Origin: Pseudogymnoascus verrucosus
Lineage: Eukaryota
Reading direction: 5' to 3' (one strand)
NCBI GenBank assembly: GCA_001662655.1
Contig: KV460206.1
Length of the DNA: 64,000 bases
The notes beneath the pieces are model-generated. The model saw only the letters and a program-made list of their open reading frames with translations, did not search any database and had not been told where the DNA came from. The translations under genes were made by a program, and so were the position numbers. Position 1 is the first letter of the stretch; every line of letters begins with the position of its first letter. This document shows, piece after piece, positions 838 to 7,063 of this stretch.

Positions 838-1600
838 TTATCCGTCATGACAGGCTCCTTCTTGCCACCCTCCATACCCCTGAATGTAACGGCCAAATAT
901 CAGTTCCCCAACTAAGATGCCCCCAAGGACCGCAAAGAGTATCCCTAGGTTCAGGGCCATCACAGCCAACATTCTAAGAGGGAAGATTAGCCAACATCGC
1001 TCTTCAAATATATAGAATGATGGAAACATACAAGATATACCCAATAAAGGCCCTGATAAACTCCATAACAGCTCGTAGCCCATCCTTCTTTACACTCCAG
1101 CGTGCACTCGGTTGCCAGTCGCCAAGTATCCGGCGAAAGGGGGCACACTGACGCTGTGAATTGTGTTCTTTCGGGGTGCACCATTCATCACCAAGCTCTC
1201 CATCCGTCGGAGAGGTCAACGGGTCGCATTCCAAATCATCATCCCGAGCCATGGAGGTAGGGAGAGGGCTTAACTTGGCCTTGAATAACAGACGGCTATT
1301 GCGTACGGTGCGCAGTGGAGGTAACATATTTGTTTGTCGGGCCTGTTCCAGCCAAGCTCGTTCAGTCTGGAATTTCACAGCTCCAAGAAATCGATTTAGG
1401 ACAGCTAGGAGGAAGACGCAAATTATTGTTGCAATATATGAGGATACTGTGGTTGTGGCCCATTCCTTGAAGAAGAGGGTGACGTGGGTGCCAGTAGAGA
1501 AGATGGTCGACATGCTCATTGCTCCCATTTCCATTTTATCAGACATTGCGGGTGGCTTGGGCGAGGCCATCGTATCGTGGTCCATCGATTCTATGTCCAT
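838..1600 (-). CDS. ctr: Ctr-family high-affinity copper transporter (2 exons, intron 974-1031)
   Basis: Met-rich N-terminus (MDHDTM, MSDKMEMGAMSM) and TM1 after LFFKEW. The GTATGT..TAG intron joins GYIL to MLAVM (MxxxM in TM2), followed by GxxxG in TM3 and a CHDG C-terminus. Confidence 0.92.
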
Positions 1601-2101
1601 GTCTATTAGAAACAGGTGTAATAGCGGCCTTTGACGTGAGATATGTCGTCTCTATCGCCAGAGCTTTATTTTGAGGGGAGGTGAACACTATGCTCTGTGA
1701 TATAATGCTTTTGTACCTGACGCCCAGCAATCAGCCCAGACGTGTCTTGTACGCTTGTTGCTAGCCAATACATACTGAGGAGCATGTTTCTCATAACGTG
1801 CTAAAATGTGCTCGAACATTCTCAACCGTATTGTTAGGTATGGTCACAGTGTGATCCCCCCGGGCTGACTGTCTAGGAAACAAATTACTCTGTTACCACC
1901 CCACTGCTTGCATGGAAAACACTGCGAAATTGTCTTGCTCTATATTAAGATGTCCAATTGTGTATTCTTATATGATTGTGTACAAAGCCATCGACGCCTG
2001 CGTCTACCGTCTTATACTTATTCTAGGCACAGTAGCCTTACATACATACAGGAATCCCAGTAGCAAAATGTACACCCACTACCGCTGCATAATAATTTCC
2101 G

Positions 2102-2593
2102 TCATAATCGTCCTATGATTCCTTCACCGATAACCCGCCCTTGGACCTCGACTGACATTGTACGGCCGATAATCCCTTCGCCGCCAGCATGAAGCTCCAG
2201 CTTGCGGCCGACAGAGCTTGAATTCGCCTCATTGTATTGAATAAGCATCTGCTGAAGAATGGGATTATTCTGCTCTCCCTCTCCGGAATCCGAAGGGGTT
2301 CCGTATGCGCTTCCAAGAATGTCAGATCCATCTCAAGGTTTATCAATACAGATGCGATGGTTCAGAAGCACCTACTATATCCGCACCTTCATATCCCCGC
2401 GCCACCATTCTGGCTTAGTCTCGTACATGAGCTGGGTATTTGCTTCCTCCGCTGTGGCAAAATAGTTTGATAGCTGACACCTCCAACTTTGTCCAGAAAT
2501 CAGAGCCATGTCTCCATTTTCTGGTCGCATATGGATAATGGCCACCGCATCTCCAACAGAGGGCGCTGGTGGAAGATGACTATCGCCGCACAT
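2102..2593 (-). CDS. Small 141-aa Cu/Zn-SOD-fold-like protein lacking canonical His ligands (2 exons, intron 2310-2375); not complete in the ORF track
   Basis: ATG at 2593, GTAGGT donor at 2375, CTGAC branch, AAG acceptor at 2310, TGA at 2102. The spliced product contains AVAII...KVRIYAYG...GEGIIGRTMSV...VIGEGIIGRL, resembling the SOD1/CCS strands KAVAVL, FHIHEFG, SIIGRTLVV and CGVIG. Confidence 0.7.
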
Positions 2594-2626
2594 CGCTCAA
2601 TGCAAGTATGAGAGAGTGTTGGTGTC

Positions 2627-2647
2627 TTTTTTTTTTTTTTTTTTTTT
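2627..2647. repeat. poly(dA:dT) tract (~21 bp) upstream of the SOD-fold gene
   Basis: Run of T on the + strand just 5' of the minus-strand ATG at 2593. Confidence 0.85.
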
Positions 2648-2726
2648 GGTTTAAACAGATATATTCGAACGTACTGAAGGGGGTATAGATATAAAAAACG
2701 TTCTCGACTCCTCAGGGCGCGAAAGG

Positions 2727-2903
2727 TTGAGCGGGTTCCGGTGAGCACTTATCGGAGTATAGAACAAAAGAAGATCAGCCCATTGAGTTCTTTCTTAACG
2801 GTCAATGGTAATGCTCAATGTTTGTCTTATTATATGGTTTACTACATATGTTGTATGTTGTGTCTTGGAACTAGTAGCGGAGGTTTGAGCAAGTTTGAGC
2901 GGG
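2727..2903. promoter_or_regulatory. Cluster of GCTCA/TGAGC cores (Mac1/Cuf1 copper-response-element-like) in a divergent promoter
   Basis: TGAGC at 2728, 2742, 2886 and 2896, and ATGCTCA at 2811. The yeast CuRE consensus is TTTGC(T/G)C(A/G). Confidence 0.55.
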
Positions 2904-3113
2904 ATGGGGAACCCATATGACGTTCAGCCATCGGTCGTCTACACATGATCATGATGCTGGCTAATGATGAGAACAAATATGTTCTACCCTCCTTTCCTTC
3001 TCGTGTAAGCTTTTTCAAGCTCGAGTACCTCTGCTTCCGAATTTATTCACTGCATCAGTGCCTTTTGTCTTCACTGCCCTCCCCATTACCAGTCTAGAAA
3101 CACAAAATTCAAG

Positions 3114-3825
3114 ATGAGTTCTACGAAATTCGCCGTTCCCAAGCTCCCCTATGCTTACGATGTAATAAACCCTAATGAACGGGATATGACATTCAGCTAA
3201 AAAAAGTCGGCAGGCACTCGAACCCTACATTTCCGAACAGATCATGACCCTCCATCATTCCAAGCACCACCAGGCCTATGTGACCAACCTCAACACTGCC
3301 TTGGTCTCGCAAGCAGCTGCCTCGGCCACAAATAGCATTGTCCAACAAGTACATCTCCAAGCGGCGATCCGTTTCAACGCCGGGGGCCATATCAACCACA
3401 CACTGTTTTGGGAGAATCTCACTCCGGCCGCTGGGACCGCTGCCAGCCCTTCCGTGGCCGGGGCTCCACGTCTAATTGCTGCCCTCACATCGCAATGGGG
3501 GAGCGTCGATGCCTTCAAGGGAAAGTTTGAGGAAACGTTGCTAGGTCTTCAGGGCAGTGGCTGGGGCTGGTTGGTGCAGGACGTCGAGACCAATCTGCTC
3601 GAAATCATAACTAGCAAAGATCAAGATATTGTGCCAAAGGGCAAGAAGCCGCTGCTTGGAGTGGATATGTGGGAGCATGCGTACTATCTCCAGTACTTAA
3701 ACAACAAGAAGGAATACGTCTCTGGCATTTGGAATGTAATTAACTGGACTGTGGTGGAGAGGCGGCTGGGGAGCGATATTGACACCGTCTTCAGTGTTGT
3801 TGGCACTCTGGCGGCGAATTTATAG
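3114..3825 (+). CDS. sod: Mn-type superoxide dismutase without mitochondrial presequence (intron 3162-3213)
   Basis: MSSTKFAVPKLPYAYD|ALEPYISEQIMTLHHSKHHQAY; NAGGHINHTLFW; QGSGWGWL; DMWEHAYY. All four metal ligands and Mn-type signatures are present. Confidence 0.95.
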
Positions 3826-3971
3826 GCATGCCACCAACAACTATTAGCATCTCCATTTGGCAACCAGCTGGACTTCTTTAAAGAAATTGACTATTATGCG
3901 ATGAGTATTGATTATGCAGTAACGTCGCGCAACTACATACGTAGCCTGTTATCACACCTTATCAGCCCACT

Positions 3972-3985
3972 AAACTTGCTCAAAC
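3972..3985 (+). promoter_or_regulatory. AAACTTGCTCAAAC, exact reverse complement of 2883-2896 (CuRE-like)
   Basis: 14/14 identity with the element in the SOD promoter; lies ~210 bp upstream of ATG 4193. Confidence 0.55.
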
Positions 3986-4192: not shown

Positions 4193-5033
4193 ATGGCTTC
4201 CTCTGCATTTGAAATTAGTACCATCGTCGAGGCAGCACTTATATTTATAAACCTTGTCTTGTTTTTGTATGGATATCCTGACTCATTACGAACAGCCCTG
4301 TGGGAGGAGGGCGGGAGCAAAGGATTCAATTCAGACCCGAAGCTTCGGATATATTACTACGCAAACTATTCGAAACCTCCCACGATCCCTTTTATATGGT
4401 CACAAGCGTGAGTGATGGAGTAGTTCTGCCCTTTAAAAGGGGTTTGTGGTGGGTTTAGAGTCGACGAGTTAGTCTAATAAAATCGCAGATTCACCGACTC
4501 CAACCTTGGTGTTTCAATTCTCACCCTATTGCTTTTCATGACACGGATGAGCCTTAAATATATGGGTGCTACGAACAAGTGCACTGAATTCTTCTTGCAA
4601 TGCTGTCTCATCTTTTTTTGGATCCTGTGTCTTGCTGGTCAACAATCGCCGGACTATTCCGATGGGCAATACCCAAGTCGCCTTCCATGGTATTTGACGC
4701 ACACATGTGGTATAGCGGAGAAAGCGAACCAGACTGCCTGCCGTGTAGCACAAGCTTCGTTCGGATTTAGCATTATCACTATGTAAGGTTTTACACGGAA
4801 CGATACTCTTTATAAGCCTGCTAAGACTATTAAACAGATTATTCTTTGGATCCTCGATCTGCATAACGGCGGCGCGCGAGGTATTTATCTTTCTAGGCAA
4901 ACGCGAACGTGAACGAACGGGGACGAAGACCCTTCCTTTAAAGCGGAATGTCTATAATACACCATATGAGATGGATGAGATGGACCAGCAGTTCAAAGAC
5001 GATTATCCTCTAATGCATGCTGCGAACATTTGA
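4193..5033 (+). CDS. Fungal hypothetical membrane protein, ~4 TM (introns 4408-4488, 4783-4837)
   Basis: Canonical GTGAGT and GTAAGG donors and CAG acceptors give one open frame. Motifs RTALWEEGG..GFNSDP..IYYYANY..P..PFIWSQ and PDYSD...PWYLTHTC lie between hydrophobic segments. Confidence 0.8.

Positions 5034-5193: not shown

Positions 5194-7063
<1,870 letters not shown>

Follow-up and report, generated by a model that had tools for sequence, protein, structure and literature searches.

A 64,000-nucleotide (nt) stretch of contig KV460206.1 from Pseudogymnoascus verrucosus (assembly GCA_001662655.1; hereafter the window, meaning this whole stretch) raises the question of what a protein that appears to be built like a Cu,Zn superoxide dismutase (SOD), and that is devoid of the catalytic residues, would do for a cell whose manganese SOD (MnSOD) gene lies beside it. 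The gene in question is VE01_00148, whose product (P0003) we refer to as the look-alike. Our reading is that VE01_00148 is a spliced member of a SOD-derived family which belongs to the copper-starvation regulon, is of cytosolic type, has the MnSOD gene as its genomic partner and would act in the replacement of Cu,Zn-Sod1 by Mn-Sod3; we give this statement as a whole a probability of about 55%.

Comparison of the predicted and the public protein confirmed VE01_00148 as a real spliced two-exon gene (Table 1). On the minus strand, the ATG (2593-2591) opens a 72-codon frame that ends in an in-frame TAG (2377-2375), and the unspliced view of the locus accordingly offers two separate open reading frames (ORFs) only, of 72 amino acids (aa; 2375..2593) and 48 aa (2102..2248). 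Splicing 2376 to 2309 yields Tyr73 from a phase-2 codon (TA|C), after which exon 2 supplies 68 further codons. An initial annotation, made from the DNA letters, had proposed these exons, the 66-nt intron and a 141-aa product, and was right on all three, as the joined exon translations equal, letter for letter, the NCBI entry [quoted passage not shown] (P0003); the segments it quoted (AVAII, KVRIYAYG, GIIGRTMSV, GEGIIG and MCGDSH) are all present in this protein. Its description of the gene as hidden fails, since VE01_00148 is already annotated at NCBI. The place and phase of the intron are conserved in 14 of 18 metagenome loci of the family (crude single-intron search); the codon that it splits, which follows the (V/I)I of strand beta4, specifies His in 14/14 of these loci. 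In the remaining 4 of the 18 loci, other intron candidates were chosen or none was needed (L036 reads through in frame). Peptides of the orthologue show that the gene is translated, at least in the sister species P. destructans. Queries with single exons gave no Pfam match, and a phmmer search of the PDB with exon 2 gave one irrelevant match (E 1.8).

Two public gene models are mistaken at this locus. The model of P0006 (Pseudogymnoascus sp. VKM F-3557, 364 aa) fuses the look-alike with the downstream Ctr transporter, while the model of P0004, like the frame of L036, reads through the in-frame intron.

When AlphaFold2 was run on a 36-sequence family alignment, the resulting model had eight strands (predicted local distance difference test, pLDDT, 85.7; predicted template modelling score, pTM, 0.80), with residues 14-141 forming the barrel behind a 13-residue tail; the strands of the exon 1 part are at residues 15-22, 36-42, 54-57 and 68-73, and the N-terminal block 1-10 was modelled at pLDDT 62. 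In a VIA-align comparison against 48,161 representative chains, ranks 1-14 were all occupied by Cu,Zn-SOD, CCS domain 2 or SOD-like chains (Z 10.8-8.0), and the next chain, an unrelated one, scored Z 6.6. Matches included a megavirus SOD (4u4i_B, Z 10.8), yeast CCS domain 2 (1ej8_A, Z 10.6, root-mean-square deviation 2.7 over 111 residues), two further CCS chains (1jk9_B, Z 10.6; 6fp6_B, Z 9.5), human SOD1 (5yto_G, Z 10.0), Candida albicans Sod5 (4n3t_A, Z 9.1) and a Bacillus subtilis SOD-like protein (1s4i_B, Z 8.0). Among the Foldseek matches listed there were likewise only Cu,Zn-SOD-family chains, i.e., SODs, a SOD1-CCS heterodimer entry and the clock protein EA4 (best E 5.7e-4). The SOD barrel expected by the initial annotation is therefore borne out by the model, which at Z>=8 matches solely Cu,Zn-SOD, CCS domain 2 and SOD-like chains.

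At the sequence level, the sole PDB match of the family profile (E<=10) was a weak one, to the Cu,Zn-SOD of Chaetomium thermophilum (6zs1_A, E 0.6), aligned in register (vrIHkyGd over MHIHTFGD and dGivGRtVsv over ESVIGRTVVV). Of the parallels that had been drawn between P0003 segments and SOD1 strands, two are thus aligned in register with a solved SOD, at this weak E value. Overall, these models indicate that the protein very probably has a SOD-type eight-stranded barrel; given this fold and the order of the motifs, Cu,Zn-SOD ancestry is the sound reading. An earlier AlphaFold2 model from six sequences, of low confidence (pLDDT 62.1) and with Foldseek matches to SODs only at E>=0.016, was replaced by the 36-sequence model; the six-sequence profile had no PDB match at E<=10.

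In SOD1, copper is held by an H-x-H pair on beta4, a bridging His in loop IV and a His after GRTxVV. Opposite the H-I-H of 6zs1, P0003 has R71-I72-Y73, so that the first His is replaced by Arg71 and the second by Tyr73 (His73 in the family); opposite the 6zs1 His after GRTVVV it has Glu127, where the family has W, V, L or F. The loop IV segment that carries the bridging and zinc histidines in SOD is deleted, with a 16-residue gap in the HMMER alignment, and the only histidines in P0003 are at positions 6, 21 and 113. In the AlphaFold2 model the link between beta4 and beta5 spans only 16 residues (74-89), and beta7-beta8 is a tight hairpin (turn residues 129-130) as opposed to the long electrostatic loop VII of SOD1 with its guiding Arg, from which we conclude that the zinc loop and the electrostatic loop are gone. 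Cys occurs only at positions 2 and 39; the residue before the C-terminal GIIG is Glu135, at what we take to be the position of the SOD1 disulfide Cys (a placement not aligned residue by residue to 6zs1). As the catalytic residues and loops are lost, P0003 cannot, judged from its sequence, be a dismutase. The absence of the Cu/Zn His ligands and of the zinc loop had been correctly noted at the outset, with no His at the aligned Cu-ligand positions of P0003; the term "ligand-less" is apt for this protein and does not extend to the family, where 132/152 members keep a His at the second position of H-x-H.

P0003 has relatives across the ascomycetes, as the check for homologues had called for. A profile of 36 sequences found 214 proteins at E<=1e-3 in a 90%-clustered collection, and a profile of six relatives found 131 representative proteins at E<=1e-3, 35 of them at <=1e-10. 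Among the 120 matches listed, members came from Chaetothyriales, Leotiomycetes, Dothideomycetes, Xylariales, Diaporthales, Fusarium, Pezizales and the yeast Lipomyces (12 had no source name), and nearly all of those with a source name were called "hypothetical", "uncharacterized" or "unnamed". The UniRef names of P0010 and P0241 begin "Superoxide dismutase copper/zinc b...", so automated annotation had already seen the SOD likeness in a few members. Pfam returned no family for P0003, P0005, P0007 and P0010 and only chance-level unrelated matches for P0011 and P0012, and PF00080 was absent from 48/48 further members scanned with Pfam, its gathering score not being reached. In the ESM Atlas, Ascomycota proteins without a name made up the nearest clusters; a cluster in which 36% of the members carry PF00080 scored 0.79 and is treated here as a lead only. 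Literature searches by locus tag and topic, which covered journals outside subscription, found no description of a Met-Cys SOD-like family.

A Met-Cys start was found in 152/163 members of 115-230 residues; the remaining 11 are apparently fragments or have a misplaced start. Across the 152 aligned members of this length-filtered set, Cys2, Gly118, Gly121, Gly136 and Gly139 are invariant (152/152), and Arg122 (151/152), Thr53 (149/152), Gly76 (147/152), Ile72 (145/152), Val114 and Gly115 (143/152 each), His73 (132/152), Glu135 (126/152) and Asn141 (115/152) are kept by most. P0003 carries the hallmarks of the family, i.e., the N-terminal Met-Cys, GxxGIIGR, GxGIIG and the phase-2 intron after the beta4 (V/I)I, and departs from it at three positions, namely Tyr73 (Tyr in only 3/152), Arg140 (aromatic in the family) and Leu141 (Asn in the family); His73 is kept in the P. 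destructans and Oidiodendron members. The MCGDSH start, originally offered as a possible Cu(I) motif, holds family-wide for Met1-Cys2, while its His6 is limited to one clade.

Conservation is concentrated on a predicted pairing surface. A homodimer model scored 0.35, while the best of 3 controls reached 0.01, with runs of the model agreeing in at least 88% of contacts and a partner pLDDT of at least 72. The mark used for this score is reached by 21/30 microbial proteins solved as same-chain pairs and by 0/23 solved as single chains; among eukaryotic proteins 17/29 reach it, and only 1/7 of those without an older solved relative. Interface residues of the model (17, 19, 21, 36, 75-78, 114-116, 118, 120-122 and 136-141) lie in beta1, the turn after beta4, the IIGR segment and the C-terminal GIIG segment, which are presumably the segments that form the SOD1 dimer interface. 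The mean frequency of the top residue is 0.74 in the interface, as compared to 0.38 at all remaining positions and 0.52 at strand positions that are not part of it, and 11 of the 25 most conserved positions fall within it. Pairing through a SOD1-type interface is therefore what the model predicts and supports.

We examined the copper response of the family in the P. destructans orthologue, VC83_02615, whose locus tag adjoins that of VC83_02616, the orthologue of the window MnSOD and, in the part of PMC12113139 available to us, a cytoplasmic Mn-SOD3 that is 2.3-fold up under copper withholding. Normalised counts (File S1 of PMC12113139) for VC83_02615 were 937 when copper was withheld with the chelator BCS (n=7), 470 in the control (n=6) and 81 under copper overload (n=8); those for VC83_02616 were 2262, 980 and 879, which makes the look-alike the more copper-sensitive of the pair. 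The fall from control to copper overload had a log fold change of -2.52 (false discovery rate 3.0e-20), and the rise with BCS over control was 2.0-fold (P = 0.0012, Mann-Whitney test). The flanking genes VC83_02613, VC83_02617 and VC83_02618 showed no clear copper response. The protein itself (L8G5T5, 16 kDa) was detected with 5 peptides, all exclusive, by data-independent acquisition mass spectrometry (Table S2 of PMC13208438), and its mean intensity (2.6e7 in the control, 3.5e7 with BCS and 1.6e7 with copper) moved in the same direction as the mRNA. The tag number "02615" is absent from the main text of both P. destructans papers (PMC12113139 and PMC13208438).

The promoter of VE01_00148 carries copper-response-like elements as well. 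According to the available part of PMC11563359, chromatin immunoprecipitation sequencing of Mac1 in Fusarium oxysporum gave the consensus DHNTGCTCANNN, with the core TGCTCA. The 520-nt region between look-alike and MnSOD holds 3 of the 26 TGCTCA in the 64-kb window (P = 0.0013, Poisson) and 6 of the 116 GCTCA (P = 0.0004); positions are given in Table 1. For the family at large, 35 metagenome loci with a match from residue 1 were reduced to 26 non-redundant ones by dropping 9 with a repeated upstream 300 nt; at least one TGCTCA lies within 500 nt before the family ATG in 25/26 of these, while 27% of 5,000 random 500-nt windows (22 loci) have one. The density of TGCTCA is 3.83 per kb in family promoters as compared to 0.79 per kb over all loci. 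As the loci are related to one another, a simple binomial figure would overstate the enrichment. A longer shared element of 20 nt, CTCAAAC-N-TGCTCAAAG, lies mostly 120-320 nt upstream in sense orientation and is present in the window too, and the extended form AAACNTGCTCA occurs 16 times in the 220,875 nt of 22 family loci, each time a short way before the family gene; the 64-kb window has two copies, at 2886 and 3972. A Mac1-bound pair reported for F. oxysporum in the same available part of PMC11563359 is "FOXG_18820 + sod3"; the product of FOXG_18820 is not stated in the main text or in 12 of the 17 supplementary files. Overall, we consider it probable that the family belongs to a copper-starvation (Mac1-type) regulon.

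The partnership with MnSOD is also seen beyond the genus. Scanning with a 9-sequence alignment yielded 50 metagenome loci, which were searched with the window MnSOD and Ctr proteins (tblastn). In 25/50 loci the family gene is directly preceded, at a distance of 348-818 nt, by an MnSOD gene, which is in tandem in 20 and divergent in 5; where at least 1 kb of upstream sequence is available, the figure is 19/30. At 90% DNA identity the loci form 15 clusters with MnSOD, 7 assessable clusters without it and 5 that are not assessable. By gene order, then, the partnership is old and widespread, though not universal. A 3437-letter unspliced contig of a public sequencing run spans transporter, look-alike and MnSOD; it is uninformative on splicing and differs from the window by 208 letters over 1079-3900, the three-gene order being common to a relative that is ~93% identical. 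Taken together, the expression of the orthologue, the Mac1-type promoter elements and the conserved adjacency strengthen the link to the swap from Cu- to Mn-SOD that had been suggested at first.

Table 1. Positions of the features at the VE01_00148 locus and in its surroundings, numbered from the first letter of the window.
Feature	Position	Strand	Details
Exon 1 of VE01_00148	2376..2593	-	Met1 to first two bases of codon 73; Met-Cys tail and strands beta1-beta4
Intron of VE01_00148	2310..2375	-	66 nt, phase 2; donor GTAGGT, branch-like CTGAC, acceptor AAG (2312-2310); in-frame TAG at start
Exon 2 of VE01_00148	2102..2309	-	Last base of codon 73 to stop TGA (2104-2102); strands beta5-beta8; GEGIIGRTMSV, VIGEGIIGRL
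Divergent promoter shared by look-alike and MnSOD	2594..3113		520 nt
Second TGCTCA core	2742..2747	-	Gene-sense orientation, ~154 nt before look-alike ATG
TGCTCA core	2812..2817	+	MnSOD-sense orientation, ~300 nt before MnSOD ATG
Tandem copper-response-like element	2880..2903	-	Reads CGCTCAAAC-TTGCTCAAAC on gene strand; tandem GCTCAAAC; TGCTCA core ~298 nt before look-alike ATG
Mn/Fe superoxide dismutase gene	3114..3825	+	Exon 1 3114-3161; intron 3162-3213 (by eye); exon 2 to stop 3825; Pfam Sod_Fe_N, Sod_Fe_C
Ctr-family copper transporter ORF	1004..1600	-	Pfam PF04145, E 6.9e-15; 3' end may continue in a further exon; downstream of look-alike
Carboxylesterase-family ORF	5194-6252	-	PF00135, E 3.9e-24; 352 aa

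Several known systems resemble the look-alike in part. With domain 2 of CCS/Lys7 (1ej8, 1jk9) it shares a SOD1-derived barrel that has no working copper site and appears to retain a SOD1-type dimer interface. Unlike CCS, however, P0003 is a stand-alone 141-aa protein devoid of an Atx1-like domain 1 (MxCxxC; no Pfam HMA match) and of a CxC domain 3, it has only a 13-residue tail with one Cys, and its beta4-beta5 and beta7-beta8 loops are shorter; moreover, CCS is constitutive, whereas the look-alike family is induced as copper falls (as seen for the orthologue), and pairing of P0003 with Sod1 is only conjectural. Cu-only SODs, represented by C. albicans Sod5 (4n3t), are likewise fungal, devoid of the zinc site and shortened in loop VII. 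According to the available part of PMC13017621, these enzymes are active, retain both copper site and disulfide, and occur only outside the cell, whereas the look-alike family is devoid of three of the four Cu-ligand His (P0003 of all four), has Glu at the presumed place of the disulfide Cys and, in P0003, starts with an N-terminus (MCGDSHLPPAPSVGD) that by inspection has no hydrophobic signal-like stretch. In canonical Cu,Zn-SODs (6zs1, 5yto, PF00080) the barrel is likewise of the Greek-key type, and xIHxxGD, GxxGIIGR and GxGIIG follow one another as they do in the look-alike family, in matching register, but P0003 has no PF00080 match, H-x-H pair, His after GRTxxV, zinc and electrostatic loops or disulfide pair. 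B. subtilis YojM (1s4i) and the Cu-less repeats of animal CSRP (variants mentioned in the available part of PMC13017621) combine a SOD fold with an incomplete or absent copper site; those proteins are bacterial or animal and secreted or extracellular, while the look-alike family is ascomycete, seemingly intracellular and linked to copper starvation. Finally, the Mac1 regulon with its SOD1-to-SOD3 swap (C. albicans, F. oxysporum and P. destructans) is matched by the TGCTCA-type promoter element, the higher expression of the P. destructans orthologue at low copper and the position beside Mn-SOD3. Since P0003 fails the defining tests of Cu,Zn-SOD, Cu-only SOD and full-length CCS, we file it under none of them. 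The available portions of PMC11563359, PMC12113139, PMC13208438 and PMC13017621 make no mention of the look-alike family. In the last of these, a 2026 review by Peterson and Culotta, the available portion names CCS, Cu-only SODs and CSRP as SOD1 derivatives and describes no intracellular fungal class of ligand-poor SODs.

If the reading that we favor is correct, the look-alike would be induced under copper scarcity, as Mn-Sod3 takes over from Cu,Zn-Sod1. It would then pair through the SOD1-type interface with itself, and possibly with Sod1 or with domain 2 of Ccs1, and the invariant N-terminal Cys on its flexible tail would carry out Cu(I) or thiol chemistry, with the outcome that copper is kept out of Sod1 or taken back from it and spared for other enzymes. 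We regard a mechanism directed at Sod1 or Ccs1, in which this binding is presumed, as less likely than not. Doubtful, in turn, is a "reverse CCS", in which a starvation-induced SOD1 mimic would dock on Sod1 or on Ccs1 domain 2 by way of the conserved dimer interface and its N-terminal Cys would block copper loading or strip copper and disulfide from Sod1 already present; this would constitute a post-translational arm of the swap that recycles copper, conserved across Pezizomycotina and under the same Mac1 element.

Fungal copper re-allocation is known mainly at the level of transcription, where Mac1 induces transporters and Mn-Sod3 and lowers Sod1. A copper-repressed SOD1 look-alike that has only the pairing surface left, and is encoded beside an Mn-SOD, is a candidate for a protein-level step in this swap and, if true, would represent a fourth class of SOD1 derivatives beside CCS, Cu-only SODs and CSRP. 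The family is present in plant and animal pathogens (P. destructans, Bipolaris, Venturia, Fusarium, Exophiala and Fonsecaea), and host copper limitation is already documented for several pathogens that carry it. New here are the copper response of the orthologue, the MnSOD adjacency, the TGCTCA promoters, the conserved intron and the predicted homodimer at a SOD1-type interface.

A number of observations weigh against this reading. The success of the homodimer model may reflect the memory that the model has of solved SOD1 dimers, in which case it would speak for likeness and not for binding, and the conserved Gly-rich motifs are structural in SOD1 too. Expression evidence comes from P. destructans and not from P. 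verrucosus; there, the increase of VC83_02615 with BCS over control (log2 0.997) is just below the two-fold cut-off for differentially expressed genes of PMC12113139, and the changes in L8G5T5 protein are not significant (log2 +0.505, P = 0.37, and -0.567, P = 0.29). MnSOD is not nearby in 11 of the 30 assessable loci (Cladosporium-like, Pezizales-like and others; nearest relatives Cladosporium, Sphaerosporella and unnamed proteins). TGCTCA is hardly more frequent than elsewhere upstream of MnSOD in 15 selected loci, 12 of them tandem and 3 divergent (1.29 vs. 0.79 per kb), and because this is near background, the element belongs to the look-alike gene. P0003, having no His73, C-terminal aromatic residue or Asn141, may itself have drifted from the function of the family. 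Mac1 dependence, lastly, we infer from the motif alone, and binding to Sod1 or Ccs1, like the binding of metal, is presumed.

A different use of the same features would be a self-contained Cu(I) buffer or chaperone, i.e., a homodimer that holds Cu(I) between its N-terminal tails (Cys2 with His6 and His21 in the clade of P0003, or with His73 elsewhere), feeds high-priority enzymes and never touches Sod1 or Ccs1. The invariance of Cys2 and the frequency of His73 would fit such a function, as would the decrease in orthologue expression as copper rises, the Ctr transporter downstream in Pseudogymnoascus and a contact in the homodimer model between His21 and His21' across the two-fold axis. Each chain, however, has one invariant Cys, which sits on a tail modelled with low confidence; His73 is gone in P0003, and neither His6 nor His21 is found family-wide. 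A Ctr gene adjoins the family gene in 0/50 metagenome loci, which makes the transporter neighbor a local Pseudogymnoascus feature, and Cu(I) binding is itself conjectural. We therefore consider this explanation unlikely.

The lasting gene neighborhood, on the other hand, would be explained if the look-alike were an accessory factor of the cytosolic MnSOD, involved for example in Mn insertion or in stabilising Sod3. MnSOD genes directly upstream in half of the loci and in two orientations, in addition to the window, and the co-regulation of both genes in P. destructans are in line with this. The conserved surface is nevertheless an interface of the SOD1 type, for which no relation to the fold of Fe/Mn-SOD is known, and the 7 assessable clusters without linkage also argue against such a role, which we judge improbable.

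Slightly less credit still goes to a regulator that works through its N-terminal Cys, which after removal of Met would be oxidised and arginylated (Cys N-degron) or acylated, so that the level or membrane attachment of the protein would track oxidants and the barrel would be the effector. Known substrates of the Cys degron begin with Met-Cys, as nearly all members of the family do, and the protein level of the orthologue follows its mRNA poorly; these features are compatible with the other explanations and not exclusive to this one, and N-terminal processing is conjectural. Finally, a decaying, functionless remnant of a SOD gene duplication, or an error of gene prediction, which the lost catalytic residues and the family-conserved residues missing from P0003 might suggest, is already disfavored and very improbable given the 214 homologues, the conserved intron and promoter element, the copper-dependent expression and peptides of the orthologue and the confident fold model.

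As for the remaining features of the locus, 33-55 nt upstream of the look-alike ATG, in the shared promoter or 5' leader, there is a stretch of 23 T (2626-2648; A on the gene strand). The second copy of AAACNTGCTCA in the window (3972-3982, + strand) is located between the MnSOD stop and a small ORF that starts at 4193 (+), ~210 nt upstream of the latter; this ORF encodes 72 aa before a likely intron, has no Pfam match and might be a third copper-regulated gene, although VC83_02617, its possible orthologue in P. destructans, does not respond to copper.

The window MnSOD begins with MSSTKFAVPKLPYAYD; a presequence would have no room if translation does start at 3114. In ten Pleosporales-like loci (L002, L003, L004, L007, L010, L012, L013, L016, L019 and L033), the frame of MnSOD exon 1 is open upstream of the Met that precedes LPPLPYAYD, and the extension is conserved and signal-peptide-like (MRG..., a hydrophobic stretch, then ASEQQPFEFGEM). 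This pattern suggests that alternative starts yield two isoforms of the Pleosporales-like MnSOD; such an extension was not seen in the window MnSOD.

For the transporter, the 500 nt upstream of its ATG (1601-2101) contain no GCTCA, and its P. destructans orthologue, VC83_02614, which is neither the CTR1a nor the CTR1b of the P. destructans papers, shows a mild copper response (131, 109 and 66 counts with BCS, control and Cu, respectively). The carboxylesterase-family ORF on the far side of the MnSOD covers only the C-terminal part of PF00135, and further exons probably lie upstream of it.

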